A stretch of 64,000 nt of DNA from an uncultured virus (IMG/VR IMGVR_UViG_3300023117_000015) (lineage: Duplodnaviria; Heunggongvirae; Uroviricota; Caudoviricetes), in IMG/VR virus record IMGVR_UViG_3300023117_000015, one strand, 5' to 3'. Below are positions 2,852 to 57,091 of the stretch, in pieces; within the stretch, counting starts at the first letter, position 1, and each line of letters opens with the position of its first letter. The notes under the pieces were generated by a model that had not been told where the DNA came from, did not search any database, and was given only the letters and a program-made list of their open reading frames with translations. The translations under genes were made by a program, and so were the position numbers.

Positions 2852-2873
2852 AAAAACAAAAATGTAAAATTAT

Positions 2874-4541
2874 TTAATTTATTTCTAAATTGATATTATC
2901 TATTGTTCCATCTGACATTGTAAAATTTAAATAAGATTCTTGTAAGGTATTTCCTAAAAACAGAGAAACTAATGGTATGTCATCACGTACTCCAGTGTGA
3001 TTAACAAATGGAATAAAATTGTTAAAATCGTCTGCTCCACCAACCGACTGAACAGTTGAAAATGTATATTTATTTGTATTGGTGTCATATACCAAAAATG
3101 TTGTACCCGAAGTAGGAATATCTGATATATTATGCCCAGTGTAACTAAAATTCTGAAGATTGGTATTTATAGTATTAATTGCTGATTGGTTTGTTAGAAT
3201 TGTATTTCTATTTTCGAGGAGGGTAATGTCTAAATCATATTGTGCAACTTCCAAATCATTTAATATTTCAAAGACATCAGCCAATTGAGAACCAATATTT
3301 GTATTTCCGGCAAGAGCATCTTGTATTTCTTTTAGCGTATCAAAATCTAGACTTACATTATCTAAAAGTATATCGAACCTGTCTTTAATTGCCTTTCTAA
3401 AACTTCCTGTAGTTTGATCATCACCATCTACAATTGCCATCTGAGATTGTAATGTATTAATATCAGATTCCATTGTAGTTATATTGGTATTCAATCCAGA
3501 CAGAGCTCCACCAACCAAAGCGTCAAATTCACTTTCTAGAGCATTAAAATCTGCAACATGTGAATTAAAATCATTTACATGATTTGTAAAATCTGTAGAT
3601 ACAAAGTCACCAAGGGCATCCGCAATTTCTTTAAGGGTATCTCTGTCAGAACTGACACCATCTAATAGAATATCAAATCTGTCTTTTATCGCCTTTCTAA
3701 AACTTCCTGTAGTTTGATCATCACCATCTATAGTATCAATGCGACTAGTTTGTGTGGTTAAATCAGTTTCAACTCTTGCAATTTCAGAGGTTAAATCGGT
3801 TTCAACTCTTGTAATTTCGGTGTCTAAAATAATATCTGCGTCAAATAAAGAAGTTGCAGAACCAATATAATTAGAGTTGGTATCTGGAGAATAATTTCCA
3901 TTGATTGGTTGAAGTCCAGAACCTAAAACTATAGTATTTCGAAAAGTTTCAAAATCTGTTCTAAAATTTAAGGTGTCTCCTAAAGAATCTGCGATTTCTT
4001 TTAAAGTATCTAACTCTGGTATAACACCATCCAATAATTCATCAAATCTTTGTTTTATTAAATATCTTATCGAATCTGGAGTATTTTCGTCTGCCTCTAT
4101 TATATCTAATCTTGCTTCAATATCTGCTACATCAATAGTAATTGTACCAGCTTTTGTGGAAGGATCATAAGAAAAGTTGACTCTACCTTCAAATATAAAT
4201 TTTTCCACACCAACTTCGTTTACTATAACACCGTCTACTGAAGTGCCAGTAGTGATCGAAGAACCAATTTGTTGCCACACATTATTGTGAGAATAGTATA
4301 AAAGTCCCGTCTGAGAATCTTTTGCCAATCTTTTGTCTAAAGGACTAGTATCAAAATCAGAAAGAGTGTCAAACTCAGTATACCTGATTAATTGTAAACT
4401 ATCTCTGGCTCCTTGTGCGGTAGAGGCCCCAGTGCCACCTTGTGCAATAGCTACAAAATCTCCGTCAGTAAATTCTGCCAGAATTACTTCGCCGTCACCT
4501 TGTAATATCGCCTTGATAGGTCTTACTGTATCAAATGCCAC
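2874..4541 (-). CDS. Coiled-coil fibre/whisker-like virion protein with three LDTLKEIADAL-type repeats
   Basis: 555 aa, GTG start after AGAGGA. Contains IAQGGTGASTAQGARDSL (common tail-fibre motif), three RFDxLLDxV..(L/R/F)DTLKEI(A/Q)D(S/A)L repeats, and heptad/hendecad segments. Confidence 0.6.
   Translation of the reverse strand: MAFDTVRPIKAILQGDGEVILAEFTDGDFVAIAQGGTGASTAQGARDSLQLIRYTEFDTLSDFDTSPLDKRLAKDSQTGLLYYSHNNVWQQIGSSITTGTSVDGVIVNEVGVEKFIFEGRVNFSYDPSTKAGTITIDVADIEARLDIIEADENTPDSIRYLIKQRFDELLDGVIPELDTLKEIADSLGDTLNFRTDFETFRNTIVLGSGLQPINGNYSPDTNSNYIGSATSLFDADIILDTEITRVETDLTSEIARVETDLTTQTSRIDTIDGDDQTTGSFRKAIKDRFDILLDGVSSDRDTLKEIADALGDFVSTDFTNHVNDFNSHVADFNALESEFDALVGGALSGLNTNITTMESDINTLQSQMAIVDGDDQTTGSFRKAIKDRFDILLDNVSLDFDTLKEIQDALAGNTNIGSQLADVFEILNDLEVAQYDLDITLLENRNTILTNQSAINTINTNLQNFSYTGHNISDIPTSGTTFLVYDTNTNKYTFSTVQSVGGADDFNNFIPFVNHTGVRDDIPLVSLFLGNTLQESYLNFTMSDGTIDNINLEIN
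3391..3730. repeat. 40-nt exact direct repeat, 300 nt apart (3391-3430 and 3691-3730), within an internal duplication
   Basis: gcctttctaaaacttcctgtagtttgatcatcaccatcta occurs twice and encodes DGDDQTTGSFRKA. Confidence 0.9.
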
Positions 4542-4566
4542 CGATTATCCTCTCTTTTATTTGTAT

Positions 4567-5652
4567 TTATGAAACGGCGCCTTCCGAACCTTCACCAATT
4601 TGAACTACACTACCTCCACTGGATTCTAAATTGATATTAGAAATAAGTGAGTTGTTATTGCTTTGTACGCACGGAACAGGCCGTCTTGCAGCGGACCAAC
4701 CAGCCTTTCCGTCTGATGAAGGTCCTCTACTATAATTTCTTATTGTTAAATTATCACTTTGATTCCCGCCGATAATTTCTATTGTGGTATCAGTCTTGTT
4801 TCCTGTCGCAATTCCAACATGTCCCTTTCCAGAATTTTTATAACTTCTCCAAAAAACAATAATGTCACCCCTTTGAATATCATCCCAACCTACTGGAGTG
4901 CCATATCCTTCATAATTTCTTGCCGTGGCGCTTGCCAGATGTTTATGTCCAGATCTTTTTAGTGTTGCACCAACAAAAACTGCACACCAATGATTATAAC
5001 CACCACTTGGTAAAAATGCATATTGTCCTAAACCAACCTCTTTCCATAACGAAATAATATTTTGATTATTACCCTGTTCTGTCCATCTTCTTGTAGTCAT
5101 TGCCTCGTAAGCAACATCAAACGGATTTCTTAATGGCACATCTTCGCAATTTCTAGAAGATAGTTCTTCTACATTCTCATCTTGAATTTCAGCCGTATCC
5201 GGCAATCCTAAACCACCCTCACTGGGCGGTAATTGTGATATATTACCCCCACCAGAACTTTCTGTATTACTAGGTTGTGAATCTGTAAAGTCTGGATGTG
5301 GGATTGGACTAAATTTAATTTCTGGAAACTTTGGTGGTGTATATTTTTCTGTACTATCTCCGGCGTTTACATTTCCACTTCCAGTTCTTATAAAGGAACC
5401 ACAACTAATTGGGTCCATCTCTCGCGCCACACCTTTTTTATTTACAAAAACTGATCCAGACCCTTTGGAAATATTGCCTGCGTGTGGTGGAACATTGGGA
5501 CATGCATGTGGTTTAAAAATGTCAACCTTTTCTCTTAAAGTTGGTTTTCCATTCGTAATTACATTATTACTACCAGCTGGACAAGTTCTTGGGGGAAAAC
5601 AACCATGTCCTGTGCATGGATCTGTATTTTGTCCTCTACTTACATTTGGCAT
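4567..5652 (-). CDS. PAAR (gp5.4-like) spike-tip protein fused to a TIGR02594/CHAP-like peptidoglycan amidase
   Basis: N-terminal PAAR: DPCTGHGCFPP..GSNNVITNGKP..HAC..PH..GSGSVFVNKKGVAREMDPISCGS. C-terminal: HWCAVFVGATL, ARNYEGYG, RGDIIVFWR, GHVGI, GGNQSD. The ATG at 5652 has a GAGGA RBS. Confidence 0.85.
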   Translation of the reverse strand: MPNVSRGQNTDPCTGHGCFPPRTCPAGSNNVITNGKPTLREKVDIFKPHACPNVPPHAGNISKGSGSVFVNKKGVAREMDPISCGSFIRTGSGNVNAGDSTEKYTPPKFPEIKFSPIPHPDFTDSQPSNTESSGGGNISQLPPSEGGLGLPDTAEIQDENVEELSSRNCEDVPLRNPFDVAYEAMTTRRWTEQGNNQNIISLWKEVGLGQYAFLPSGGYNHWCAVFVGATLKRSGHKHLASATARNYEGYGTPVGWDDIQRGDIIVFWRSYKNSGKGHVGIATGNKTDTTIEIIGGNQSDNLTIRNYSRGPSSDGKAGWSAARRPVPCVQSNNNSLISNINLESSGGSVVQIGEGSEGAVS

Positions 5653-8600
5653 AAGCACTATATCCTCTTGTCGTCACCAGTATATCAGTTACTTGTTGAT
5701 AATAGGCACTTTCACTATCGGGTCTTATTGCACAATTAAGTAACAATGGTTCTATATTTTCCAACCTTTCCGCTTCTATGGATGATACTGCAACATTACC
5801 CAAACTCATTTCTAACAATAAAATATCAAATTCTTCTTTAGTCATATTTAGTTGTCCTAAATCATAAAGTTCTTGTAGTTCAACTTTAGAATTTTCCATT
5901 TCTGTTTTGTTTAAATCGTTGTTAAATCTACCATATCCAGCTTCCCTTAATTTTTTAATTTTTTCTGTTCTAGTTAATATCTCGCCTTCCCAATATCCAA
6001 GTTGTGTATCCGGCAAGGTTTGTTCTTCTGGTTTAACTTTATTCGTATGCAACCATAGATCTCTGTCAAAAGAATAATTATTATGAACTTTTAATTCAAA
6101 GTTAATTTCTTTTTTAAGTCCACCAGTCCCATCTTGTTCAAAATTAAATAATAAGTATTGTCTATCATCTTCTATATTTGTTATATATTTTTGTTCTACA
6201 ACGAAATTTGTATCAGTTATGACCAAATATGAATATGCAGCCAATTGATTGATTTGTTCATTTAGACTGTCTATCTGTTCCTGTAATATTTCTATTAAAA
6301 CTTGATCGGTAGTATTATTCAATTCTTGTTGAATTTCATCTCTTTTATTTGTTGCAACAATTTCTGCCTGAATTGCAGTGAGGTCGTATTCCGATGTTTC
6401 AGTATATTGCTCAAAATCAAAGTCAAAATTTCTGTCCACTTCTACCTCAAAAGTCCATACATTTTTTATTACTGGTGATTGATTAGAATTAAAAATAACG
6501 GGAAATAATTCTGGGCCTGTTGGAGAAGAAGAGATTCTCGCCCTAGAAGTGACTCCTGTTGTGCTGTTATGTTGTTCTACTGTGTCGCCAAAAGAAGGTA
6601 AAACTGCGTCATCTGGTTCTACGATTTGTATTATTCCTCTAGATATAGCACTCGCTAATATTTTATATTTAAATGTTCTAGGAGTTTTCATATCAAAATC
6701 TGTCCAATCCAAATCTATTGGTGGATGATGTCCTTCGTCAGTCACCCAATTTTCTGTCGCATACTTATTTAAAAATATATCCATATCACTGATTTGTCCC
6801 GTCAATCTACCATCTGTCGTTAATGTCAAACACTCAAGAAGTCTGTTATCACTTAAAAATTCGTAAGACCAAATATATCTACCAGCCTCTATTCCTTTAC
6901 CATTTTTTGAACCAGTATTCATATTAAAATTAACAAATTCAAATTCATATAGTGGGTCATCTTCTCCTAAAGTAAGAGTTATTTCATATTTTATTTCTGA
7001 TGTACTCATAGTAGAAGTTTTAATGTATTCCATTGGCACGAAATGATGCCCATAATAAAGTTTTGGTAAATTTACTGCTTCGTGACCATAAGCTTCAGAA
7101 CCACCAGACTTTATTCTGCCTATTGATGATTGAATTTTCATTGGTTCAAAATTTGGCAAACTTTTTACATTGTGATAATAGGTTTGTCCTACAAACAAAT
7201 CAAAAACAAAAAATGGAGTTGACTCATATACAACTTGATTACCACTATATTTGCCGGAAGATTTTCCAAAAACTACAAAATCTGAAATTTGTGCAGTTGA
7301 AAATCTCTGTCCAAATTTTGGATATTGCGATTGAACACTTTCGTATTTTGCTTTTTGTATTGGGTATTGAGATTGTATGCCTTCATATGTTGGTTTCTGA
7401 ACTGGATATTGAGATTGTATGCCTTCATATGTTGGTTTCTGAACTGGATATTGAGATTGTATGCCTTCATATGTTGGTTTCTGAACTGGATAATGAGATT
7501 CAATACCTTTCAAAGATGCTCTGAAAACCTCTTCTACCATTTTAAACTTAAATATATTAATGTCAGTGTATTGTGTTGGTAAATTTACATAACTTTCATC
7601 ATTAACAAAATAAGAGTATGGTTGTGTATAAACGGCAGGAACCATATTTTCATTTTGAGTCATATTATCCAAATCTAAGAAGAAAAGTTTGTGTAAGAAT
7701 GTTTTTTCTTCTTCCTCTTTTAGATATGGACTATAATCTACTTCATATTCATTTAGTTTAGAAAATTGTAAATTTTCTTCAAAGGTTTTATCTGTAGGCC
7801 CAACAATATAATCCATTTTTACATGCAGCGGATTAAATCTATGAATTCCACTTATAGGTACAAAAGTTTTGTCTGGTGGGCCAATAACCATTGGTTGTAT
7901 GTAAGTTGTCTTGGTGGATTCTCTTATTTGAATTAAACCACTATCACCTTGTATTATGAGATCTTTCCCAGAATCAAATCCTGAGTCAATTATTTCGTGC
8001 AAGTCTGTTTTTCTCAAATAATCATTATCTGAAGAAATAATTAATAAATCATCTCTTTGTAAGAAACTATCTATTTCTTTTATCAGTGTAGAAGATTCTA
8101 ATACAGTATCTAATGTTCCTTGGAATAATGGTTCACTAGATTTTAAATAATCACTAAATTTGTTTCCAATAGAAAAGAGTTGAGATTCTAAAGTATATTC
8201 TCCACTTTTTTCTATTAAAGACTTTGCTCTTTTTAAAAAATCTTTAGGACTGGTGCTCAATAATACAGATGGAACAATTACATCTTCTATTAATTTTGAA
8301 TTTAATTTTTCATTTATTGTGAATATTGATAAATTTTCTTCAATATAATTGGATGCAGCAACAACAACATCGATAAGGCCATCGGCACCTATAGTTCTTA
8401 ATTTATTTAAGGAATTTATTAATACTTCGGAATCGTTACCATACTTAGTAAGACTTTCGATTATTTGTCTATAATATTGTTTAGCGTCATTATAAGATAA
8501 TGTACCTACATTACTGAAAAACCCCTTGTCTTTTCTGAAAATTTGTTTTTCCAACATAGGCAGGAAAACTTCAAAGAAACTATTATCATCAGAAACTGAA

Positions 8601-8884
8601 TTCAAAGAATTTAATAGTTCAGTTGCTAAATACTCTGTTTGGAATGATTTTCCGATTGATAGTATTTCGTAATCATTACTAACTGTTCCGACAAATGTTG
8701 AATCTTCGGGCGTAGATTGGATAGAATAAATTGACTCAATATAAGTTGAATTAGAAACATTATTTTCAAAAAATTGACTATATATTTGCACATCAACTTC
8801 AGATTTTGATGTATATATTATGTTGTCAAAGAAAATGGTCTTAGCTTTTACTCTAATTCCATTACTGCCTATAATCTGAGTCAT
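5636..8884 (-). CDS. Large virion-associated protein with 14-aa tandem repeats and an Ig-like/gp5.1-like C-terminal region
   Basis: 1082 aa. Contains YEGIQSQYPVQKPT repeats and LTLTTDGRLTGQI (putative Ig-domain motif). Overlaps the PAAR start, so it sits upstream of PAAR as T4 gp5.1 does. Confidence 0.45.
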   Translation of the reverse strand: MTQIIGSNGIRVKAKTIFFDNIIYTSKSEVDVQIYSQFFENNVSNSTYIESIYSIQSTPEDSTFVGTVSNDYEILSIGKSFQTEYLATELLNSLNSVSDDNSFFEVFLPMLEKQIFRKDKGFFSNVGTLSYNDAKQYYRQIIESLTKYGNDSEVLINSLNKLRTIGADGLIDVVVAASNYIEENLSIFTINEKLNSKLIEDVIVPSVLLSTSPKDFLKRAKSLIEKSGEYTLESQLFSIGNKFSDYLKSSEPLFQGTLDTVLESSTLIKEIDSFLQRDDLLIISSDNDYLRKTDLHEIIDSGFDSGKDLIIQGDSGLIQIRESTKTTYIQPMVIGPPDKTFVPISGIHRFNPLHVKMDYIVGPTDKTFEENLQFSKLNEYEVDYSPYLKEEEEKTFLHKLFFLDLDNMTQNENMVPAVYTQPYSYFVNDESYVNLPTQYTDINIFKFKMVEEVFRASLKGIESHYPVQKPTYEGIQSQYPVQKPTYEGIQSQYPVQKPTYEGIQSQYPIQKAKYESVQSQYPKFGQRFSTAQISDFVVFGKSSGKYSGNQVVYESTPFFVFDLFVGQTYYHNVKSLPNFEPMKIQSSIGRIKSGGSEAYGHEAVNLPKLYYGHHFVPMEYIKTSTMSTSEIKYEITLTLGEDDPLYEFEFVNFNMNTGSKNGKGIEAGRYIWSYEFLSDNRLLECLTLTTDGRLTGQISDMDIFLNKYATENWVTDEGHHPPIDLDWTDFDMKTPRTFKYKILASAISRGIIQIVEPDDAVLPSFGDTVEQHNSTTGVTSRARISSSPTGPELFPVIFNSNQSPVIKNVWTFEVEVDRNFDFDFEQYTETSEYDLTAIQAEIVATNKRDEIQQELNNTTDQVLIEILQEQIDSLNEQINQLAAYSYLVITDTNFVVEQKYITNIEDDRQYLLFNFEQDGTGGLKKEINFELKVHNNYSFDRDLWLHTNKVKPEEQTLPDTQLGYWEGEILTRTEKIKKLREAGYGRFNNDLNKTEMENSKVELQELYDLGQLNMTKEEFDILLLEMSLGNVAVSSIEAERLENIEPLLLNCAIRPDSESAYYQQVTDILVTTRGYSAYAKCK
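7323..7512. repeat. Coding 42-nt tandem repeat (3 exact units at 7365-7490 plus degenerate flanking units)
   Basis: tattgagattgtatgccttcatatgttggtttctgaactgga x3. Confidence 0.95.
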
Positions 8885-8886
8885 TT

Positions 8887-10938
8887 TTACAACTTCATAC
8901 TTCTGTTGATGCCATTTCTATCGATAAATGGGCCTATAACGCTATTTAGTCCTGTAATTTCACCCAATATTGTTACTGGTCTTAAATGATAATAAGTTAA
9001 AGTTCCTCCATGTAATCTTATAACCCCCTTAGATATTCCACCACCAACTAAACTATCGTCAGAACCTATTCCTTGTTCACCAAGATTATCCTCTCCAACA
9101 TTTCCTATAATAGACTCTTCTTCTCTGTCATCTTGACCGACATTGGGTGTTACTGTGTCATCTGTGGTGTCGTCTTGTCCCACATTAGGAGTTACAGTGT
9201 CATCTGTAGTATCATCTTGGCCTAAGTTTGTTGTAATGGCATCATCTGTGGTGTCGTCTTGTCCCACATTAGGAGTTACAGTGTCATCTGTAGTATCATC
9301 TTGGCCTAAGTTTGTTGTAATGGCATCATCTGTGGTGTCGTCTTGTCCCACATTAGGAGTTACGGTGTCATCTGTAGTATCATCTTGGCCTACTGATGGT
9401 GTCGCCACTTCGTCAGTTGCATCTTCTTCATTAATTGTAGTAGAGATTGTAGAATCTATTAAGTCACTAGAGTCTAAATTTGGTGTTAAGACAACATCTT
9501 CTAGTTCGTCAGTACTAATATTTGGTAATGTAGTTGCAAACTCTCTAACTAGTCTTTCTAAAACTTCGATTGACTCGTCTGTCGTAAGTCTATTTAATTC
9601 TTCTATAATATCAGGTGTTATAAGATCAAGTTGTTTTAATTCATTTATTAAATCTTCTTCAGTAAGATTTTTTTCTCTCAATTCTTCTACTAAAACTTCA
9701 GCAACAATTGTTTTTTCTAACAACTCTTCGTCTTGTTTTAAAAACTCTAAAACCTGTTTTTGTAGTTCTTCTCTTAGAGAATCTTCTGTTTTTATTAGTT
9801 CTTGACCGACAAGTTCCTCTACAAATTCTCCTATATTTGTATCTAATAAAAATTCTCTAACTGTAAGTTCGTTTAAATTTATTTCATTAATATTAGATTT
9901 TTCTAATTCTTCAAAGAAGAATTGTCCAAAAGTCTGTTCAACTAATGTTAATTCTTCTTTTTCTAAATTGCCCAACTCTACAATGTCGGTTTCTTCTGTG
10001 ACAAGTTTTTCTATGATAGAAAGAACTTCCCTATCAATAAATGAATCTAAAACATTTACTGCTGCCTTTTCTAATTCTTCTATAAAAATACTTTGTTTAG
10101 TTTCTATTATATCTGCTATTTCGTTTATTGCAGTTTCTTTGAATTCAGATACAATATTATCTATAATTTGTTCTGGTAAATCTTTTACAAAATCTCTTAA
10201 AACATCATCCGATAAGATTGCAGTTTTTATTTCTTCTTCTACTAAAGAAGTTTCTATTATCTCAGCGAGAGCCTCTGTGCTTATAAGTTCTGTAAGTTCT
10301 GTGACTCTTGTTTGATTATCAAATAAATCTGAAATATCTCTAGTGCTTATAAGATCAGACTCAGATTCTGCAACAACGGCCTTTACCGACTGTGTTATAG
10401 ACTCTATCAAACTTGTTTTTATTTTTGCAGCGACATCAGCTATTGTTTCTGTGCTGGGTAATGTATCTGCAACTTCAGTTTCTGGTGCGGGTTCTTGTGA
10501 TAATTGAGAATCTGCGACTTGATCTTCTGGCACTTCAACCTGAACTATGACAACGGGCAAAGTTTCTCTTACCTGTTCATAACTTTCTGAATCGGTTGAT
10601 AATGTAGAAGATACTTCTGTGGGCAAACTTGCAGTATTAAATAAAGAAACGTGCCATTCCATTGCAATTGCGCCGGCGACAGTATAGTTATAAACTGAAG
10701 TTTGATCGATTGTTGGATTTGTTACTTTTAGTTGAATAGTGTCACCATTATTAAATGATGCAGAATTTCCAACATCAATCCCATTTTTAATAATGGTTCC
10801 AGTGTTAAAAGTAACATTAACTGGTTGTGAACTTAAATCTGTAACAGTTACTATTTCTGAAAAGAGCTCACTTGGACTCGTGAGTCCAGAGCTCATTTCA
10901 ACATAGTCTGGTATAAAGAAACTGTCTATGAGTGCCAT
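8887..10938 (-). CDS. Very acidic protein: N-terminal beta domain, long Glu/Leu-rich helical region, C-terminal 14-aa Asp/Thr repeats
   Basis: 683 aa with GQDDTTDDTVTPNV / GQDDTTDDAITTNL repeats; RBS GAGGGGG. Confidence 0.6.
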   Translation of the reverse strand: MALIDSFFIPDYVEMSSGLTSPSELFSEIVTVTDLSSQPVNVTFNTGTIIKNGIDVGNSASFNNGDTIQLKVTNPTIDQTSVYNYTVAGAIAMEWHVSLFNTASLPTEVSSTLSTDSESYEQVRETLPVVIVQVEVPEDQVADSQLSQEPAPETEVADTLPSTETIADVAAKIKTSLIESITQSVKAVVAESESDLISTRDISDLFDNQTRVTELTELISTEALAEIIETSLVEEEIKTAILSDDVLRDFVKDLPEQIIDNIVSEFKETAINEIADIIETKQSIFIEELEKAAVNVLDSFIDREVLSIIEKLVTEETDIVELGNLEKEELTLVEQTFGQFFFEELEKSNINEINLNELTVREFLLDTNIGEFVEELVGQELIKTEDSLREELQKQVLEFLKQDEELLEKTIVAEVLVEELREKNLTEEDLINELKQLDLITPDIIEELNRLTTDESIEVLERLVREFATTLPNISTDELEDVVLTPNLDSSDLIDSTISTTINEEDATDEVATPSVGQDDTTDDTVTPNVGQDDTTDDAITTNLGQDDTTDDTVTPNVGQDDTTDDAITTNLGQDDTTDDTVTPNVGQDDTTDDTVTPNVGQDDREEESIIGNVGEDNLGEQGIGSDDSLVGGGISKGVIRLHGGTLTYYHLRPVTILGEITGLNSVIGPFIDRNGINRSMKL
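9139..9390. repeat. Coding 42-nt tandem repeat, six units with an 84-nt higher-order alternation
   Basis: Units encode GQDDTTDDTVTPNV (A) and GQDDTTDDAITTNL (B) in order A-B-A-B-A-A. Confidence 0.95.
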
Positions 10939-10965
10939 GCAAACCCCCTCATATTATTTATTATT

Positions 10966-10993
10966 AAAAAAGGGAACCGAAGTTCCCTTTTTT
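10966..10993. terminator. Rho-independent terminator with a cUUCGg tetraloop on the minus strand; symmetric, possibly bidirectional
   Basis: aaaaaagggaac-cgaa-gttccctttttt. Confidence 0.9.
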
Positions 10994-11007
10994 ATTTTAC
11001 GCCTCTA

Positions 11008-14000
11008 TTAAGAAACGTCTGGGGGAATGAAATCACTGTATTCTGGTCTGATAGAACCACCTCTTACTAAAAGCATAATTCTCATCCCATTACCATATGG
11101 TAGCGTTGAATGCATACCAAGATAGGTTCTTTCAGAAGAAGTTGTTGCAGAATTTGTTCCGGTGTGCCAAGTATATGGAAAACGGAAATTCAATTCTTCA
11201 GAACTATTGGTTCCTGTGCCGGCTGTGTCTCCAGTTACCGAAGAGCTCTGCACACTATCCAAATCATACTTTGCGTTGTTGGCACCAACATTAACAAAAC
11301 CTCCCATAGTACTTGCATCTGCTGATGTATAACAAATCAAATCCATTTCATCTTCTGGGTAGATATATCTCTGACTTGTCATTGGGGTTGGAAAGAAAGT
11401 AACCAAAGTTTTTCTATCTGTTAGTGCAAGTTGTTCGTATGGATTAATAATAGCAGGACTATCCACTTGTGGAATAATAGCCGACACATGTTTGTCCCAA
11501 GGTTTTAATACATCTTGTTCCCTGATACAGAATCTATAAATCGCTTTAGACTCGTTGTGTGGATTCATCCAAGATGCCGGAATATCTGGGTCCGATGGCA
11601 ATTCAATCAGATATTGAGATGTTGCATTAGGATCAATGGCATAATTCTCATATGCAATAGTTACTACTTGAGAATTTGCAATTTCATCTCTAACGTATAG
11701 ATGATCCGTTTGCAACATATATGCATAAACATTTTGTTCGTTTCCAAAAACGGGTATTTGAGTAAACTGTGGAACACCATCAGAATCTACAATATATTCT
11801 TCAGGAGCAACCGCAGCGTTTATTTCAACATTACTGACATATACACTCAACAAACTCGTATTTTCAAGAGGACCCGTCCCATCACCACTTCTGCCAACTG
11901 GATTGATATATCTATTTTGATATCCCGCACCTTTCCATCTATAATTAACTAAAACTTTTGGTTTTTGTCTGGCGATGGTGCCGCCAGACGTGTTGAGCGG
12001 ATCATAAGACCAATCTGTATCTGTGTCATTAATTTCGTGAATAACTAATTGTCTTAACGAATTATTAACTGGATTTTCTACAGGATGCAAAAACTTAATG
12101 CCAAATCTTTTTACTGGATAGGTTTCACCCCTAAATGTATTTGTAAAATTATCAATTGCTTGTACTTCTAATTCCCAATGCACACCCCTTTCCAATTCAA
12201 CATAGTCTTGGAATTTATATTCGGAGTGCCATCTTGCCAAATAAATAGATTCAATTTCCAACCCTTGGCCCGCTGGTCCCAATCCCCATTGATATGCAGT
12301 ATTAAAATTAACTAGTTCTGTATAATCTACCCCAAGATATGCAATATCGGGTGCTTGGGAGGAGATCGTCGGATCCTTGGTAGTAGCAATAGTAGGAAAA
12401 TCTGACACATGAGCTGCCGTAATATAATCTGTGCCAACGGTAAATCCGGGCGAAGTAAGAGAACCAACCTCCGATAAATTGGTATTTGCAACCAAATAAT
12501 TGTTAAAGTTTCCAAAAGTTGTGCCAGTTGTAGTTGCAAATATTCTATCTTTATCTGTTATAATACTTGAAACTACTCTATCGGTAGATTTTAACTGTCT
12601 ACCATCAATATCATAAATATCACCTAATTGATCATATTGTAGGTTAACTTGACCGGTAATTGAATTTACAGTTTTACTCCAATTTTGATACAATGCAATA
12701 TTGGTATTAGAGGCCTCGACAGCTCTTTTACTTGGCGAATAAACGCAGTGTATAGGAGATTTTCCTTCTTCCAATTCTATTTTACCAGATGTATTATTTA
12801 CATGTCTTTGTATTACAAACCATGCATAGTCATCATCTTGATCTACAGATGCATGATCCCACATAAACAAACCAAGACCGTGGTCTGTGACAGTAAGTCT
12901 ATATTTTACAGGATATGTTGGAGTAATTAGAGGGTCATCTTTGCCTGCACGTCTGAACCAACCAGAGCGAGACTTTCTAAAGCCATCACTACTATCATAA
13001 AAAATATCACATAACTCGCCAGGCCGTCTAAAAGTTGGTCCTTTGATACCATCACGACCTTGTGTACTACTTAAAGTTCCATTATCTGAAATTTGATATT
13101 TTGTGCCAGCAAAAACATTAATTTCATCTTTTTGTTCATTATATTCAAACATCAATCTCCATTTTTGTGGAGCTCTACCCTCCAACCAAGCAGAAGATGC
13201 AACCAGATCTGTTGGAACTGTAATTCCTGAAGGTATAATATCTTTTTTTGAAGAAAGAATATCAACACCTTTTTCGGATTCTACAATAAATCTCGATCCA
13301 ATTCTACGAATACAATTCATTACATCAGACTGATTTTGTTGACCATTTTCATCAATTACTGGATAAGAATTTGCGTCTGGACTTGAATATGGATAAATGA
13401 TATTGAACGATTGTTGTTCTATTTCTTCTTCTGGAATAGACATTCTCCAACTATTTGCGGCATAACGAACTCCAGAAATCATATCTGGTTCTAAATTATT
13501 TTCATCTTGTGTAAATGGTGTTAAAATTGTCCCGAATGCAATTGTACCATCGTTAGAAATAGATTCAATACGAACTTCACCTCTGCCATATTCTTGGATG
13601 ATTCTTTTCTGCAAATCATCAGACGAGAAAACTGCATCAGTACCTGTTATTTTAACATTCACTGATGAGTTGGTTTGATTTGACGCATACGAAACTACGA
13701 TTGTTCCGTTTTTCATTTTTGAATCAGACCAATCATATGTGTAATGATTTGCATAAGGATGTAAAGTTAAATCCATTGCTAATTGTTTTAAAACGCCATC
13801 TTCATAATTACTATAATACTGTGTTTTGGTAAAATAATCTAATATAAGTCGATCATTTGGATTTGGAATCGAAGCATTATTCAATGTAATTGAACCATAT
13901 GGCGCTACTGACGGAACAATTATAATAATGTTATCAGTTCCTGTAGATGGAGTATTATAAAATGTTATGTTTTGGCCATTTACCAAATAGTCATTATTGA

Positions 14001-14595
14001 TTTGTAATAAACTACCATCTACATAAATTTCTAAATCTCTAGGATCAGATATAGTCGAAACTACAGTAAATATAGTTGTTCCGAGTTTTCTAACATTTAT
14101 TGTTGAACCTACTGATGGAGCTGTATTAAATGTAATTTCATTATTACTAACACCACCAATTGTATAATCTGTGCCATGAGTTTGCAAAGAACCATCAATA
14201 GAAACTTGGTCGGTTGTTGATGGAGTAAAATTCGTCACCGTAAAATTAGTTATGGTTCCATCACCAGAAAAAGCTTGCGTCAGATCACCAACACCATCAA
14301 AAGACTCTCTGACAGCAGGAGATGGAGGCGTGTAATAAAACTGCCCTCCATTACTAAAACTATTGTCTCCTTCTAAATTATCTAGTAACAATATCTGACC
14401 TGTCTGATCGATCTTTGCTCGAATTACCAAAGTATTTGTTAATTCCGTATCTACATGTCTAGAAAGTGAATATGATGTTGTAGAACCATCACTTACAAAG
14501 TATTCTCTAAACATGGGTTGTTGCATAGAAATGAGTTCTATTCTAGATATGGAAAACCCACTGCTTTTGTATTTTGAGTCTAAACTATTAGCCAT
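11008..14595 (-). CDS. Virion structural protein, paralog family member (1195 aa)
   Basis: Shares the blocks QKWRLMFEY, PGELCD, YPVKYRLTVTDHG, DQDDDYAWFVIQRHV, REQDVLKPWD, IINPYEQL, FPT.MTSQRY.YP..EMDLIC and GNGMRI with the two neighbouring genes. Confidence 0.8.
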   Translation of the reverse strand: MANSLDSKYKSSGFSISRIELISMQQPMFREYFVSDGSTTSYSLSRHVDTELTNTLVIRAKIDQTGQILLLDNLEGDNSFSNGGQFYYTPPSPAVRESFDGVGDLTQAFSGDGTITNFTVTNFTPSTTDQVSIDGSLQTHGTDYTIGGVSNNEITFNTAPSVGSTINVRKLGTTIFTVVSTISDPRDLEIYVDGSLLQINNDYLVNGQNITFYNTPSTGTDNIIIIVPSVAPYGSITLNNASIPNPNDRLILDYFTKTQYYSNYEDGVLKQLAMDLTLHPYANHYTYDWSDSKMKNGTIVVSYASNQTNSSVNVKITGTDAVFSSDDLQKRIIQEYGRGEVRIESISNDGTIAFGTILTPFTQDENNLEPDMISGVRYAANSWRMSIPEEEIEQQSFNIIYPYSSPDANSYPVIDENGQQNQSDVMNCIRRIGSRFIVESEKGVDILSSKKDIIPSGITVPTDLVASSAWLEGRAPQKWRLMFEYNEQKDEINVFAGTKYQISDNGTLSSTQGRDGIKGPTFRRPGELCDIFYDSSDGFRKSRSGWFRRAGKDDPLITPTYPVKYRLTVTDHGLGLFMWDHASVDQDDDYAWFVIQRHVNNTSGKIELEEGKSPIHCVYSPSKRAVEASNTNIALYQNWSKTVNSITGQVNLQYDQLGDIYDIDGRQLKSTDRVVSSIITDKDRIFATTTGTTFGNFNNYLVANTNLSEVGSLTSPGFTVGTDYITAAHVSDFPTIATTKDPTISSQAPDIAYLGVDYTELVNFNTAYQWGLGPAGQGLEIESIYLARWHSEYKFQDYVELERGVHWELEVQAIDNFTNTFRGETYPVKRFGIKFLHPVENPVNNSLRQLVIHEINDTDTDWSYDPLNTSGGTIARQKPKVLVNYRWKGAGYQNRYINPVGRSGDGTGPLENTSLLSVYVSNVEINAAVAPEEYIVDSDGVPQFTQIPVFGNEQNVYAYMLQTDHLYVRDEIANSQVVTIAYENYAIDPNATSQYLIELPSDPDIPASWMNPHNESKAIYRFCIREQDVLKPWDKHVSAIIPQVDSPAIINPYEQLALTDRKTLVTFFPTPMTSQRYIYPEDEMDLICYTSADASTMGGFVNVGANNAKYDLDSVQSSSVTGDTAGTGTNSSEELNFRFPYTWHTGTNSATTSSERTYLGMHSTLPYGNGMRIMLLVRGGSIRPEYSDFIPPDVS

Positions 14596-14629
14596 TTAAT
14601 TTTGCCTTTATTCGTTTTAGTATTATTTA

Positions 14630-17600
14630 TTACGCAGGCGATGCACCTTCTACAACATCTGTCCATTTAATACTACTTCCAGAAACTTGTAAGAATACTC
14701 TCATACCATTTCCATTTGGCATAGTACTCATCATACCCTCATATTTTCTCTTGTTTCTTTTCCAGAAATAAGTATCACCAGTTGGTCCAACATGGCCACC
14801 CCATTCAAAGTCATCTCCGGCATCATTTGGACTTGGGTCAATATCAATACCATCAATATTTAAGACATTTCCACTCAAACCATTAGAATCTTGATACTTG
14901 TCAATCTCAATAGAACCAGACTGAGTTGAGAAATCAGCAGAAGAAATACAAATCAAATCTAATTCACTTCTTGGATAATAGAATCTTTGTGATGTAAGTT
15001 GTGTTGGGAATGAGAATACAAAATCTCTATCCTGTGTAATTGACAACTGTTCTTGCGGATTAATAACCGCATGAGAATCAACTTCGTGCATTGTAGCGGA
15101 AACATGGTAATCCCAAGGTTTCAACACATCCTGTTCTCTTACAACAAATCTATTAATAGTTTTTTCCTTGTTTTGATTTCTTTCTGGGAAATCTCTATCA
15201 GCAGGACTAGTAATATAATATGAGTTTCTAGCTGGATCACTATAAACATAGTTAATTAATTTTATAATTAATTCAGAACTATGTCTTGGAGCAGTTCTAA
15301 AGAATAATGTTTGATTGAAGAAATCGTAAATATATCTTTGTCTGTCATCCCCACTTGAAAAGACTGGGTCTCCAGGCAGTTTACCTGTCAATACACTTGT
15401 TGCAGTAATAGTAGACTTTATTAAATGATTTCTTGCATCATGGTCAGCACTATCTGCCTCAAGAATTGTTCCCTCGTTGCCGTAATATTTTACAGCCAAC
15501 CATCCAAGAACTTGATTTGTCGATTGTTGCCTATATGTATTCTGTGGATCTATGTATTTGAAAAACCTATCATACAATTCAACTGATAAATGCACACTAT
15601 ATGTGTCGTTTGTAGTATCATTTCTATATGTTTGTGTTGCACCAGAACCAGTACTAGGATCGAAATCAATACGATTTTCCAGACCAAGAATAATATTGAC
15701 AATTTCTTGTGGAATAATAAGGTGTTCTACTTCTACAGGCGTATCTGGAGCTCCATCTACAGTTCTTAATTCAGTAACAGTTTCTGTAAATGCGGGAAGT
15801 CTAAAATATCTACCAAGTTCATTAACTCCAGCAGCATCAAGAGACTGAATAAAGCGGCCGCAGGCCTGAGGATCGCCACTTCTTACCCACTCATCATATT
15901 GAAGTATATATCCTTTAGTGTCTCTTTCAAGTTCCTCACCATCAACAGCAACAACCATTGATTCCATAACTTTTTCCATATTCTGAACATTTTCATTGTA
16001 AAGAATATCAAGTAATGCATATGATGGGTCACTCCATTCACCAAGTGATGCACCAGTTACTGAGTCATTAATCGCAGTATTATTTGCAGCAGCCGCTTGG
16101 AAAGATGAAACTCTTTCAATTCTATTTGTAGGGAATACAACATTACCAGAATAATGTGGTGCAAGAGTTGCGTCAACCAACCAAATAGAACCGTCAGCAA
16201 CTGCGTTGGAGTTGTTTTGCGCGCTTCCGCCAGGAGGAGTAACTTGTTGTCCGTCCCTTGGCAAAGTCTCAAATCCAACAATTTGAAGATCATTAACCTT
16301 TGATCTATTTTCAACAAGTTGTCCAGAAGCAATCTTAACCGTTATAGTAGTAGTACTAGGGTCAATTGGTTGGCTTTGATTTATTCTTTGACTAATAGGA
16401 TTTAAAGAACCTGTGCCGCCAAAAAATGTAATAAATTTTGCTTGTCTGTCTATAATATAATCTTCACCCGCAACCAATGTTAATGTGTTACCTGCGTTTG
16501 GGATGTCTTTATATGTGACCACAATTTCTCTATCACCTAAATCATAATTGTCTGTCCAAAAATCCCAAAGCGGAAATGAACTAGGATCGGGAAATGCGGG
16601 ATCATGCTGTCCGCCAAAATCTCCAATCACTTCTGGATTGCCATTAACTGGAACTAATTGGGTCAACAATGCAACATTCTGTTTAGATCTTAGAGCGTCA
16701 ACACTAGAACTACCTGGCGCTGTTTCCCACGTAGCTAACGACCAGTAATCAGTTGTGTTAGTAGTGGCACCACCAATAATCCCTCTATCCAACTCCTGTT
16801 TAACACCCTGATTAAGATTTTGAACATTTGTTGCACTCAAAAGACCTGCCGTATAACCATATCCTGTAAAATCTAATGCATTTGTATATCCATTAAATAC
16901 TGGTGTTGCACCAGTTGCACTTATATACATTGTTGGACCTTCTGTTTCTAGCATTTGTCCCAATGATGTGTAAATATTTGGAGATTTTGTCAAATCATTT
17001 ACATCAGACGAAGAATAATACTGATTTAGGTCAGAAATGTCTACTGGACGTTTGGCAGGAGAATACACGCAATGTACTGGAGACTTTTGTGTAAACTCTG
17101 GTTGTCCTGTTGTTTGATCAACGTGTCTTTGAACAACAAACCATGAGTAATCATCGTCTTGATCTACAGAAGCCTGATCCCAAAGAAACAATCCCATTCC
17201 ATGATCGGTAACTGTTATTCTGTATGACATTGGATAAGTTCTAGAAATATTATCTTCAGTTTTTCCAGATCTTCTAAACCAGTGTGACTTTGCCTTTACC
17301 ATTTCATAACCAATTGTTCTACCAGTATTTGGTTCTAAGTATACATCACACAATTCTCCTGGCTCTCTATAAATTGGAGATTTAATACCATCTCTAGTTT
17401 GACCAGATGATACAGACATATCATCTAACAATTGATATTCAGTTGCCACATTAACTTTAACTGACTGTAGTTTACGATCCCACTCAAATCTAATTCTCCA
17501 TTTTTGTGGTCGTCTTTGACTTTGCACCTGATAATATTCTGGAATCAGATTATCATCAGATAATAGATCGACTCCTTTTGTAGACTCCACCAAAAACGAA

Positions 17601-19285
17601 TCCGTGATATCTCTAAGTGCTGCCTTAACAGCTGTTGGAGTATTTGAAACTGGTTTTGGATAAATTAAGTTAAATCCCGGCTGGAATTTTTCATTTTCTT
17701 CATAGAAGAGCATAAACGCATCACTATTTTTTACCTTAGTCAACTCCAAAAGTGCTGTATGAGATTCACTAGATGTAAATTGAAGGGTATAGTCTCCAGT
17801 AACCGTTGCAGCAACATCTAATTGTAATGTCGCAGTTGGCCAATAGCCAGGAACATTTGTGCCTGTTCCAGTATTTACATTACCACTAACAACGACTCCA
17901 TCTGGGTCCAAAATAACAAATTGATCGTTGTGATTAATTGTGATTGCGCTACCAGTAACATTACTACTTACATCACCCTGCACAAAACCAAATTTAATAA
18001 CCTCTCTTCTATCTCTTAAAGTTTCGGAGTAATATGTATTAATCTGATAATGGTTTGGATCGTTCAGATCAGTTGAACTTACATCAATTTCAATATACCC
18101 AGTATTATCGGTTGTACCAAAGGGATTTGTCGTAGGATCGGATTTTGGTGGTTGATGGCGAATAACAGATACTGCTACGTCATCCAAAGTTGTTGCTTCA
18201 GATTTTAACGCATTTGTTAAATCATAATCTTCACTATCAAGAGCCTCTTGTATTGGTCCATATCCTAGTTTTCCGATCATAGCTCCATAAGGAACATCCA
18301 AAGAATGTTTCCAAATATACGAAATTTCAACATCAACATCAGAACGATCTAACACCCATCCCCAAGTTTTGGCACTTTCTAAGAAAATTCTAAATCTACT
18401 TGTTCTATTAACTCTGTCAGAAGAAACAGACCACGCAGAATCTGGAATCACTTTACCATCAACAGCGATTCTAAATTCTCCGTCACCTAAGTCATTGAGG
18501 GTTAATGGAAAATTACCAATATATAAATCTGTTTCGTCTACACCAGTAGCTGGCGTAAATGAATGATTTTTAAATGTAAAACTAAATTCTTTTACACTTC
18601 TAAAAATTTTAGAACCAATTCTTGCACTTTCCAATTGATCCGTAAATGCATAATCTTGTTCTACACCAAATTTATTATCTAGTCCATATACTGTAGTGTA
18701 TTGATCAATTTCTGCTGGCAATATATTCGCTGCAGGAACAAACGCAGAATGATCTGTTTTAAGTACATAATTTGCCTTTTCGGGAATATTTCTAAAAACT
18801 TCTGGAGTTTCGAATGGATGCACTGTTAAGTCTTTTGCAAGTTGATATAAAAGTCCACCATCAGTTCCTGTCCAATTATCTTCTGATTCTTGATAACCAA
18901 TAGTTACTTTTTCACCAGAAACTGGCGCAGTTTGCGGTAAAAATTCCAAAGCTCCATGTTCGCCTATGTTAGTAATATATCGAACAACACCCAAACCAGC
19001 GTCCAAAGAGCCTTCGGTATAGGTATTTGCTTGCCAATTATTAAATTCTATCAATGGTGATTGTGTAGAATCTGCGAGCAAGTTGTTGCCGGTGTTTCTG
19101 TTCAGAGCGATTCTTATTTCTCCAATTTTAATTTCCCAAACCCAAGTTTTATCTTGAAAATCTGGTTTTGAGCGCAGAACATAAATCGTATTTGAACCAA
19201 TAGCAGTATGTGTTTCCACATTCTGTCTATGAGGAATATCTATAATCTCTGTTCTTTGTATGCTATACCCACTTGAGAGCGCCAT
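14630..19285 (-). CDS. Virion structural protein, paralog family member (1551 aa)
   Basis: Same conserved scaffold blocks as 11008-14595 and 19350-21290, with larger inserts. Confidence 0.8.
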   Translation of the reverse strand: MALSSGYSIQRTEIIDIPHRQNVETHTAIGSNTIYVLRSKPDFQDKTWVWEIKIGEIRIALNRNTGNNLLADSTQSPLIEFNNWQANTYTEGSLDAGLGVVRYITNIGEHGALEFLPQTAPVSGEKVTIGYQESEDNWTGTDGGLLYQLAKDLTVHPFETPEVFRNIPEKANYVLKTDHSAFVPAANILPAEIDQYTTVYGLDNKFGVEQDYAFTDQLESARIGSKIFRSVKEFSFTFKNHSFTPATGVDETDLYIGNFPLTLNDLGDGEFRIAVDGKVIPDSAWSVSSDRVNRTSRFRIFLESAKTWGWVLDRSDVDVEISYIWKHSLDVPYGAMIGKLGYGPIQEALDSEDYDLTNALKSEATTLDDVAVSVIRHQPPKSDPTTNPFGTTDNTGYIEIDVSSTDLNDPNHYQINTYYSETLRDRREVIKFGFVQGDVSSNVTGSAITINHNDQFVILDPDGVVVSGNVNTGTGTNVPGYWPTATLQLDVAATVTGDYTLQFTSSESHTALLELTKVKNSDAFMLFYEENEKFQPGFNLIYPKPVSNTPTAVKAALRDITDSFLVESTKGVDLLSDDNLIPEYYQVQSQRRPQKWRIRFEWDRKLQSVKVNVATEYQLLDDMSVSSGQTRDGIKSPIYREPGELCDVYLEPNTGRTIGYEMVKAKSHWFRRSGKTEDNISRTYPMSYRITVTDHGMGLFLWDQASVDQDDDYSWFVVQRHVDQTTGQPEFTQKSPVHCVYSPAKRPVDISDLNQYYSSSDVNDLTKSPNIYTSLGQMLETEGPTMYISATGATPVFNGYTNALDFTGYGYTAGLLSATNVQNLNQGVKQELDRGIIGGATTNTTDYWSLATWETAPGSSSVDALRSKQNVALLTQLVPVNGNPEVIGDFGGQHDPAFPDPSSFPLWDFWTDNYDLGDREIVVTYKDIPNAGNTLTLVAGEDYIIDRQAKFITFFGGTGSLNPISQRINQSQPIDPSTTTITVKIASGQLVENRSKVNDLQIVGFETLPRDGQQVTPPGGSAQNNSNAVADGSIWLVDATLAPHYSGNVVFPTNRIERVSSFQAAAANNTAINDSVTGASLGEWSDPSYALLDILYNENVQNMEKVMESMVVAVDGEELERDTKGYILQYDEWVRSGDPQACGRFIQSLDAAGVNELGRYFRLPAFTETVTELRTVDGAPDTPVEVEHLIIPQEIVNIILGLENRIDFDPSTGSGATQTYRNDTTNDTYSVHLSVELYDRFFKYIDPQNTYRQQSTNQVLGWLAVKYYGNEGTILEADSADHDARNHLIKSTITATSVLTGKLPGDPVFSSGDDRQRYIYDFFNQTLFFRTAPRHSSELIIKLINYVYSDPARNSYYITSPADRDFPERNQNKEKTINRFVVREQDVLKPWDYHVSATMHEVDSHAVINPQEQLSITQDRDFVFSFPTQLTSQRFYYPRSELDLICISSADFSTQSGSIEIDKYQDSNGLSGNVLNIDGIDIDPSPNDAGDDFEWGGHVGPTGDTYFWKRNKRKYEGMMSTMPNGNGMRVFLQVSGSSIKWTDVVEGASPA

Positions 19286-19322
19286 TATTTTCTCCTCTAA
19301 GCCTTTTTTAGTTACTTAATTC

Positions 19323-19330
19323 TATTTATA
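19323..19330 (-). promoter_or_regulatory. T4-type late promoter TATAAATA
   Basis: Exact motif in the intergenic gap upstream of 19285. Confidence 0.8.
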
Positions 19331-19349
19331 AAAAAACAATACACATTAT

Positions 19350-42832: not shown

Positions 42833-42850
42833 AAAAAAATCCTTTTTTAG

Positions 42851-42858
42851 TATTTATA
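42851..42858 (-). promoter_or_regulatory. T4-type late promoter TATAAATA dedicated to the lysozyme-bearing gp5
   Basis: Exact motif in the 32-nt gap between the two gp5 genes. Confidence 0.8.
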
Positions 42859-42864
42859 ATTAAA

Positions 42865-57056: not shown

Positions 57057-57091
57057 TTTACTGCTCTCATTTGTTATTTCGTATGAGAACA

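Follow-up and report, generated by a model that had tools for sequence, protein, structure and literature searches.

A probable spike-tip PAAR protein with a predicted tethered peptidoglycan hydrolase in an uncultured marine T4-like myovirus

The question raised by this locus is whether a phage can load a wall-cutting enzyme onto the tip of its tail spike. Phage PAAR tips have so far been described as bare sharpening cones, and effector-bearing PAAR proteins have been treated as an innovation of type VI secretion systems (T6SS). For example, the excerpt available from Iyer et al. 2021 (PMC7824862) calls the PAARs of jumbo myoviruses “standalone... unfused to any effector domain”. T6SS tips with covalently attached effectors are mentioned in the available part of a preprint on T4 gp5.4 (PMC12407873), which speaks of “facultative” domains in a figure legend. 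We analyzed a 64,000-nucleotide stretch of DNA, hereafter the window, from an uncultured virus (IMG/VR record IMGVR_UViG_3300023117_000015). In it, a preliminary description made from the letters alone had noticed a PAAR spike tip fused to an amidase-like domain at positions 4567..5652. The fusion gene is real, and that observation is confirmed. Its product is likely to form the tip of the central spike in a marine T4-like myovirus, with a predicted peptidoglycan hydrolase tethered to it. The earlier proposal of a wall-cutting enzyme at the spike tip gains support from a PAAR domain that is the only one found, from gene order in relatives, from a predicted complex with gp5, and from conserved catalytic residues.

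The gene (4567..5652, minus strand) comprises 361 codons and a TAA stop at 4567-4569. The open reading frame (ORF) offers two in-frame starts, an ATG at 5652 and a GTG at 5658. We take the ATG as the start and consider the GTG unlikely because all seven aligned full-length homologues begin MP(A/G)..R. An AGAGGA-like ribosome-binding site precedes the ATG, and the gene shares its first 17 nt with the end of the upstream gene for a protein of 1082 amino acids (aa) (ORF 5636..8884, minus strand). In the 361-aa product, P0001, residues 1-100 form a PAAR cone, 101-165 a linker, and 166-330 a CHAP/NlpC-P60 cysteine peptidase domain; a 31-aa tail follows. An AlphaFold2 model had a mean predicted local distance difference test score (pLDDT) of 82.3, with residues 1-100 and about 170-330 as its confident parts. 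It was built on an alignment of 90 rows from matches of at most 360 aa, with proteins longer than 400 aa excluded to avoid misaligned gp5 parts. This is not a chance ORF because relatives at about 34-55% identity retain both domains. The motifs quoted in the preliminary description, HWCAVFV, GHVG, and GGNQ, are all in the translation. Its two-domain call also held, as PAAR and CHAP each score above the Pfam gathering score and both folds were matched in the model.

The PAAR cone (5353..5652, minus strand; block-mean pLDDT about 87-98) was recognized by sequence and by fold. Pfam PAAR_motif (PF05488) matched residues 26-86 with 35.5 bits, where the gathering score is 27, and phrog_281 (PAAR) matched with E 8e-26. 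The NCBIfam equivalog domain T6SS_PAAR_dom (NF033420) matched residues 11-98 (E 5e-20) with 71.4 bits, below its curated cut-off of 124 bits. The modeled domain has the three-hairpin cone of E. coli c1882 (4jiw_D; Z 16.8, root-mean-square deviation 1.1 Å over 93 residues), V. cholerae VCA0105 (4jiv_D; Z 16.2), and T4 gp5.4 (4ku0_D; Z 15.6), with deviations of 1.1-1.4 Å over 93-94 residues across these three. Further fold matches were the Klebsiella phage KP1 tip (Z 14.4), P1 UpfC (14.0), and phiKZ gp163.1 (12.2). When the PDB was searched with the family sequence profile, 4jiv (E 5.6e-16) and T4 gp5.4 (E 7e-13) were found. According to the available text of the T4 gp5.4 preprint (PMC12407873), that protein builds its metal site from three His plus one Cys, tetrahedral at the tip. 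In our protein, the candidate metal ligands His16, His49, His57, and Cys84 align to the conserved His/His/His/Cys of 4jiw, an alignment that bears out the earlier description of a complete PAAR with metal-binding His and Cys. His16 is invariant in eight family members, and each of the other three is kept in seven of the eight. The fusion thus resembles T4 gp5.4, P1 UpfC, phiKZ gp163.1, and the KP1 tip in its cone fold, in its His/His/His/Cys positions, and in being a single tip gene. However, the phage PAAR tips are bare proteins of about 87-97 aa, whereas the fusion has 361 aa with a linker, an enzyme domain, and a tail.

The second domain, residues 166-330 (4663..5157, minus strand; block-mean pLDDT about 77-95), is a TIGR02594-like cysteine peptidase domain of the CHAP/NlpC-P60 type. 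Pfam CHAP (PF05257) matched residues 218-297 with 28.8 bits against a gathering score of 26. NCBIfam TIGR02594 aligned with residues 220-309 (profile positions 39-124 of 132; E 4.6e-14) at 52.9 bits, short of its curated cut-off of 70.55 bits. The profile phrog_1259 (baseplate hub subunit and tail lysozyme) matched at positions 992-1123 of 1179 (E 2.6e-21). The best structural matches were 3h41 (Z 11.1), Trichomonas NlpC1 (11.0), and the C. difficile autolysin Acd24020 (7cfl; 10.9), which was also found with the family profile in the PDB (E 1.6e-4). These were joined by the B. subtilis DL-endopeptidase CwlO (10.5), 6bim (within 10.4-11.1), LysK CHAPK (9.6), the LysGH15 CHAP domain (within 9.2-11.1), and a diffocin baseplate chain (9.3). 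The domain accordingly has the papain-like fold of the CHAP/NlpC-P60 clan (Z 9.2-11.1), and the T6SS effectors Tae3 (8.0) and Tae1 (7.9) matched as well. It shares this fold (Z 7.9-10.9) and the Cys-His dyad with NlpC/P60 and CHAP hydrolases such as 7cfl, CwlO, MepS/Spr, LysK CHAPK, and Tae1/Tae3, but at an identity of only 10-24%. Specific to the TIGR02594-like group are an extra helical segment at the N-terminus (about residues 170-210), GGNQ, and the tail. Cys223 is encoded at 4984-4986 and His278 at 4819-4821, and Asn297/Gln298 lie within GGNQ. Both Cys223 and His278 are kept in all 91 relatives compared (20/20 PAAR-linked, 19/19 gp5-linked, and 52/52 free). Asn297 is kept in 90 of the 91 (20/20, 18/19, and 52/52, respectively) and may be the third catalytic residue that completes a triad.

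These results fit a wall hydrolase, and one case that could have overturned the earlier reading, a C-terminal domain that is not of the NlpC/P60-CHAP kind, did not hold in view of the CHAP score and the NlpC/P60 fold matches. The word “amidase” fared less well: a papain-like domain with Cys and His is present, but an amidase is not established, and most of the closest matches among solved structures are NlpC/P60 endopeptidases. It is also conceivable that the domain is no peptidoglycan hydrolase at all, but a CHAP-type amidase or peptidase for another substrate (such as a link to an envelope lipoprotein or a periplasmic host protein) or a catalytically silent binding module. CHAP and NlpC/P60 are broad superfamilies; the fold matches included the non-catalytic RipD (Z 8.9) and a non-wall enzyme, the E. 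coli Gsp amidase (Foldseek E 0.04), and the Pfam and TIGR02594 scores are modest. We nevertheless regard this as very unlikely, given that Cys, His, and Asn are strictly conserved, that wall hydrolases are the best structural matches, and that the closest relatives of the domain in cultured phages are found in proteins for which the annotation is mostly a gp5-like “baseplate hub and tail lysozyme”.

The domains are joined by a stretch of low pLDDT rich in P, E, S, and G (residues 101-165; 5158..5352, minus strand). At 65 aa (P10, E8, S8, G6), this linker is close to the roughly 70 aa estimated beforehand. Its block-mean pLDDT is 50-75 over residues 101-160 and rises to about 81 at 161-170; the linkers of relatives span about 25-80 aa. 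At the other end of the enzyme domain, residues 331-361 (4570..4662, minus strand) form a tail that is predicted to be disordered (pLDDT about 41-53) and ends in ...AVS.

If the PAAR cone is a spike tip, which spike would it cap? PHROG and Pfam scans of the 38 large ORFs of the window identified a T4-like myovirus, naming gp48-, gp53-, and gp27-like genes, gp25, gp6, a gp7-like gene, gp8, gp2/3/4-type genes, gp32, and PhoH. By gp6, the closest cultured phages are Pelagibacter phage HTVC008M (35.5% identity) and then cyanomyoviruses; these identities therefore indicate a distant, uncultured marine lineage. Two gp5 genes were found. The product of the short one (42865..43677, minus strand; Pfam Gp5_OB) is 270 aa long, has OB fold and beta-helix but no lysozyme, and ends in ...KIELNP. 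That of the second (41318..42832, minus strand; Pfam Gp5_OB and Phage_lysozyme) is 504 aa long, carries a phage lysozyme besides the OB fold and beta-helix, and ends in ...KIDLNP. Both paralogues end blunt (...I(E/D)LNP), and no His-x-His was seen among the last residues of either. A gene for a gp25-like baseplate wedge protein (40877..41308, minus strand) comes directly after the lysozyme-bearing gp5. No ORF lies between these two in the window, so the usual gp5.4 slot is empty.

Searches with tblastn, using ten bare PAARs, the PAAR of locus L008, and the PAAR part of P0001, found one PAAR locus in the window, and the C-terminal part of P0001 found one CHAP locus. The same held in three related records, each with one PAAR. 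The nearest record, G001 (82% shared words; 76 kb, 38% complete), has the same gene (100% identity), two Gp5_OB proteins, and one PF00959 lysozyme. In G002 (141 kb, 70% complete), which carries a 47%-identical orthologue, the PAAR is the fusion; there are two Gp5_OB proteins (278 aa, and 501 aa with lysozyme) and one PF00959 match. The PAAR of G003 (123 kb, 73% complete), from a 38%-identical orthologue, is likewise the fusion, with one Gp5_OB protein (259 aa) and no PF00959 match. The tandem gp5 paralogues of the window (41318..43677, minus strand) thus recur in G001 and G002, and G003 has the short form only. The preliminary description left it between an enzyme that complements and one that replaces the gp5 lysozyme. 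Both situations occur: the window keeps the lysozyme, and in the G003 contig, 73% complete, none was found.

A complex was predicted with the short gp5. PAAR residues 1-104 (with an eight-row alignment) and three copies of short gp5 residues 196-270 gave a score of 0.89 (runs of 0.87, 0.89, and 0.89), compared with 0.01 for the best control. In calibration, the mark for this score was reached by 116 of 157 solved complexes and by 2 of 215 mismatched pairs. Between runs, the agreement in contacts was at least 93%, and the partner pLDDT was at least 91. The predicted interface is threefold, with gp5 residue 261 and residues 263-270 of each chain meeting PAAR residues 28-35, 65-72, and 92-101. 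If the prediction holds, the fusion would sit on the last residues of the gp5 beta-helix trimer in the manner of T4 gp5.4-type tips. The suggestion to model the PAAR on each gp5 trimer was thus carried through for the short gp5, which passed its controls. The pass speaks for a resemblance to a known mode of binding and does not prove it for this particular copy. We take the short gp5 as the most likely, predicted carrier of the cone, and the lysozyme-bearing gp5 is a candidate for an alternative or additional carrier. The linker would leave the cone from its rim and not from its point because PAAR residues 92-101 sit at the gp5-proximal base in the model.

How common is this architecture, and where does it lie in other genomes? 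Proteins were searched in a set of 5.8 billion and, exhaustively, in 1.84 billion representatives. Among 27 matches in the larger set, seven clusters of full-length fusions besides its own were found (P0003-P0007, P0009, and P0014; 34-54% identity, 91-100% coverage). The representative search returned 3208 matches at E<=0.001; ten of the best 150 carry PAAR and CHAP by our own hidden Markov models (HMMs). Pfam confirmed both domains in six of these ten, and in P0009, P0041, P0048, and P0079 one domain rests on our own HMMs or a phmmer alignment. At about ten 50%-identity clusters in the best 150 matches from the 1.84 billion representatives, the architecture counts as rare. We also classified the ORF holding the match in the 80 best of 399 confirmed IMG/VR loci. 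Sixteen were PAAR-CHAP, so the search for the same architecture in viral metagenomes that had been proposed was successful. Nine were gp5(OB)-CHAP and six were cut at the 5' end; the rest had a mid-length N-terminus (22), were free (15), or had other long N-termini (12). A second PAAR was present in none of the 16 PAAR-CHAP loci, and all nine gp5(OB)-CHAP loci had a bare PAAR together with gp25/gp6 within 2.5 kb (L008 was also checked with Pfam). Three loci, L004-L006, have the order short gp5 (OB and Gp5_trimer_C), PAAR-CHAP (335 aa), gp25, gp6; that is, the fusion occupies the gp5.4 slot. The fusion of L019 also adjoins gp25/gp6, and in L001-L003 it lies at a position in the fiber module like that of the window. 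Tips of the T4 gp5.4 type are single-domain proteins of about 97 aa encoded next to gp5; the window fusion departs from them in both size and position, but its orthologues in L004-L006 are adjacent to gp5.

The position in the window has to be considered carefully. The gene lies within a same-strand run of large fiber-like structural genes, and its start is 35.7 kb from the lysozyme-bearing gp5; the earlier statement that it sits about 36 kb from gp5 and not between gp5 and gp25 was correct. In this lineage, the fusion might have moved to a fiber operon to cap a trimeric fiber or side spike, which would place the enzyme at the periphery of the baseplate. The overlap with the upstream 1082-aa gene, the large fiber-like neighbors, and the conservation of this gene order in L001-L003 would all suit such a role, and the partial text of PMC12407873 likens tip binding to that of monomeric gp38 on trimeric gp37. 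We think it very improbable all the same. Both gp5 paralogues end blunt without His-x-His, no other PAAR was found in the window, G001, G002, or G003, the orthologous fusion occupies the gp5.4 slot in L004-L006, and the predicted gp5 complex passes. Moreover, tip genes need not adjoin spike genes, according to the portion of PMC12407873 available.

A further question is whether the protein is a virion component at all. A PAAR with a C-terminal enzyme is the architecture of specialized T6SS effectors, and the fusion resembles these “evolved” PAAR effectors in having an N-terminal PAAR and a covalent C-terminal enzyme on a contractile spike. The PAAR parts of the PAAR-toxin proteins Tas1 (6ox6; E 1.5e-10) and Tre23 (7pq5; E 3.4e-09) match the family profile. 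In the available part of PMC13055248, effectors of Stenotrophomonas that are associated with T6SS have TIGR02594 domains. The gene could be a moron, an antibacterial effector of the T6SS type that the phage carries and the secretion system of the host uses. However, it stands in a genome with a T4-like structural module, and the scans of the 38 large ORFs, which are T4-like virion and replication genes or unknowns, named no T6SS component or family, although no search was aimed at an immunity gene. Its PAAR scores below the T6SS_PAAR_dom cut-off, its nearest PAAR relatives are proteins of bare-PAAR size (95-98 aa) up to 61% identical, and the fusion lies in the gp5.4 slot of relatives. We therefore hold this origin to be extremely unlikely. 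Unlike the T6SS effectors, the fusion occurs in a phage gene context, and its cargo would presumably serve entry and not the killing of competitors.

The enzyme part is not confined to PAAR. Proteins with a gp5 OB fold, a beta-helix, and CHAP (P0011-P0013 and P0031; L008-L011, L014-L017, and L020) carry the same module at 42-48% identity, placed after ...IDLN at the C-terminus of gp5 and followed by a separate bare PAAR. For example, residues 16-255 of P0013 (501 aa) match the short gp5 of the window as far as the terminal ...IELN (30% identity, E 1e-31), and residues 293-476 match residues 144-328 of P0001 (44% identity, E 3e-43). From these alignments, the gp5-CHAP proteins are a short gp5 joined to the same linker-CHAP-tail module. 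We built a module tree of 112 rows, after 13 of 125 HMM matches that covered fewer than 110 profile positions had been dropped. The spike-tethered modules formed one clade (SH-aLRT 99) of 50 rows: 20 PAAR-linked, 19 gp5-linked, and 11 apparent fragments. The 62 other rows, mostly free TIGR02594-like proteins, fell outside. By sequence, then, the enzyme domain of the fusion is TIGR02594-like and groups in a clade separate from the free proteins of the family. At least four changes between PAAR and gp5 carriers are required by the best tree, counted over the 20 PAAR-linked and 19 gp5-linked rows, with three long proteins outside the clade and the fragment and free rows left out. Repeated carrier exchange is not claimed, however, as an approximately unbiased test does not reject a single PAAR-linked clade (p 0.442; lnL difference 6.38). 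Flanking cysteines are mostly restricted to the spike-tethered clade: Cys169 is found in 12/20 PAAR-linked and 11/19 gp5-linked modules, and Cys328 in 14/20 and 10/19; a Cys169-Cys328 staple is possible. Two variants were seen besides. In P0165 (479 aa), the PAAR is interrupted or preceded by an intein splicing domain, and P0093 (563 aa) combines a gp5 OB fold, CHAP, and Hydrolase_2.

The tail adds to this picture. At the extreme C-terminus, its consensus is ...G-G-x-V-[T/S/V]-COOH (P0003-P0013, L004, L008, L016, and others). Of the PAAR-linked proteins 15/20, and of the gp5-linked ones 15/19, end in V[T/S/V]-COOH, compared with 0/52 free relatives and 0/67 other fetched proteins. The retention of the module in covalent linkage on two spike carriers, together with a tail motif restricted to spike proteins, argues for selection on the tether itself. 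This bears on another possibility, namely that CHAP is cleaved off within the linker as the virion assembles or matures, so that the mature virion keeps only the PAAR cone and the free enzyme acts elsewhere, perhaps as an auxiliary lysin at the time of lysis. The length of the linker and its predicted disorder would make it accessible to proteases, and T4 gp5 is itself cleaved during assembly. Set against this are the module kept covalently on both carriers, with a tail motif absent from the 52 free relatives, and a separate endolysin candidate, a 175-aa Hydrolase_2 (SleB-type cell wall hydrolase) at 56574..57101 (minus strand; Pfam E 1.8e-22), which by sequence is likely the endolysin. We judge the cleavage scenario to be improbable. 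With the gp5 lysozyme, the PAAR-CHAP protein, and this Hydrolase_2, the window would encode three different wall hydrolases.

Searches for the fusion in cultured phages gave little. A megablast of window positions 2800-9000 against cultured phages returned nothing, and the divergent L040-type fusion was found in 0 of 301. Three cultured phages had PAAR matches that aligned past residue 100. Of these, phiR1-37 g142 was rejected as a fusion, being a bare 96-aa PAAR, and no long ORF is annotated at the matching place in ACP17 and Atu_ph07. Among the fold matches in BFVD, several proteins of 312-848 aa have long alignments (e.g., A0A2I7RYH4) and might, on their predicted structures, be two-domain relatives in cultured phages. 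The proteins closest to the enzyme domain in cultured phages are mostly the gp5-like ones mentioned above. T4 gp5 and the phrog_1259 hubs (Ackermannviridae and Vibrio phage RYC), which have a TIGR02594/CHAP-type domain, resemble the fusion in carrying a wall hydrolase on the spike. They differ in that gp5 and hub enzymes are present in three copies per spike, that of T4 being a glycosidase, whereas the enzyme of the fusion hangs from a monomeric tip protein. In the literature searched, no account of a phage PAAR with a hydrolase attached to it came up. The PAAR-enzyme fusion is thus known from T6SS, is not described for phages in the literature that we found, and is conserved and rare.

Several observations weigh against a central-spike tip with a wall hydrolase. 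In the window and in L001-L003, the gene sits 36 kb from gp5 in a fiber-like run. A divergent PAAR-CHAP group of nine loci (L026-L031, L033, L034, and L040; 326-350 aa, about 30% identity) has the fusion outside any recognizable structural module. In L027, the one divergent locus that was scanned, the neighbors are genes for ribonucleotide reductase, thioredoxin, and NT5C (5'-nucleotidase). Position alone therefore provides no tie to the spike. The contigs are all partial (38-73% complete), and a further bare PAAR may lie elsewhere in the genome. Complexes like the predicted one have been solved (4jiw, 4ku0), and its pass may come from likeness or memory; in addition, the phage has two gp5 paralogues and the complex was modeled with the short one. 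Both NCBIfam scores, for T6SS_PAAR_dom and TIGR02594, miss their curated cut-offs. The bond cut would be a stem-peptide bond or the N-acetylmuramic acid (MurNAc)-L-Ala amide bond of peptidoglycan, a specificity that we infer. Lastly, when 50,697 cultured-phage records were searched with tblastn, 411 had a match, but none reached 80% coverage and the best covered 40%.

Taking these points into account, we still favor the central-spike tip with its tethered enzyme and propose the following course of events. The PAAR cone would cap the blunt C-terminal end of the gp5 beta-helix trimer, most likely that of the short, lysozyme-less gp5. The linker would exit at the gp5-proximal base, leaving the metal-stabilized point free, and as a flexible tether of about 65 residues it would hold one papain-like Cys/His hydrolase per virion beside the beta-helix. 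Contraction of the tail would then push the spike across the outer membrane and so bring the enzyme into the periplasm. For P2, the spike protein was localized to the periplasm, according to the part of PMC12407873 available. There, the Cys223/His278 enzyme would cut the peptide part of murein near the site of entry, at a stem-peptide bond or the MurNAc-L-Ala amide, and the local opening of the wall would let the tail tube through. In the window phage, this peptidase would work alongside the gp5 lysozyme, a glycosidase. In the G003 lineage, the PAAR-tethered enzyme is apparently the only hydrolase borne on the spike, and in phages of the L008 type, the enzyme would be carried on gp5 in three copies.

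Other features of the window are given here for completeness. The upstream 1082-aa protein, which matched no Pfam or PHROG family, has four tandem copies of the 14-residue unit QYPVQKPTYEGIQS and variants at 7270..7530. Three consecutive proteins of 1195, 1551, and 646 aa (11008..21290, minus strand) share a C-terminal phrog_12249 domain (E 6e-38 to 5e-49). The label of that family is “tail sheath”; the three are probably paralogous fiber or fiber-tip proteins. A 681-aa protein (21917..23962, minus strand) that ends in a carbohydrate-binding domain of the GLEYA/PA14 kind (Pfam E 2.6e-13 and 1.5e-06) is a candidate receptor-binding protein. A gp29-like protein of 783 aa (49497..51848, plus strand) has weak glycine-zipper matches at residues 568-609 and PHROG matches to tape-measure and tail-associated-lysin families, and a 2404-aa phrog_358 protein is also encoded. 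The nearest upstream T4-type late-promoter-like motif on the strand of the fusion gene, TATAAATA, is at 19323..19330 (minus strand). This motif is not enriched in the window (14 copies compared with 9.9 +/- 3.0 expected; 9 of 100 shuffles reach 14). By our reading, eight of the 14 lie within about 50 nt upstream of a same-strand gene start; examples from the whole set of 14 are 2844, 19323, 34059, 42851, 46414, 46890, 53397, and 62958. The motif positions suggest a single late transcript, 19285..2874, that includes the PAAR-CHAP gene.

On the sequences and models considered here, this family indicates that phages, too, load an enzyme onto the tip protein of the spike. One enzyme module alternates between gp5 and PAAR as carriers and seems to replace the gp5 lysozyme in some lineages. 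A more tentative idea, which we rate as possible but short of an even chance, is that linker, CHAP, and V[T/S/V]-COOH together form a self-contained, exchangeable “spike cargo cassette”, mounted by marine T4-like phages either on gp5 (three copies, with a bare PAAR) or on PAAR (one copy, with a short gp5). If so, phage spikes would follow the “evolved VgrG / evolved PAAR” cargo logic of T6SS and might be its evolutionary precursor. The V[T/S/V]-COOH terminus would then be a signal specific to spike tethering, which might serve to dock the enzyme in the baseplate, to set off its release, or to keep it inhibited before firing. The family also raises the questions of how a monomeric, tip-tethered enzyme is housed and released, whether one copy of a peptidase is sufficient to get through the wall, and whether the cargo principle of T6SS predates T6SS. 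In practical terms, the module may be of use as a lysin for marine gram-negative hosts that is compact and by nature compatible with a spike.

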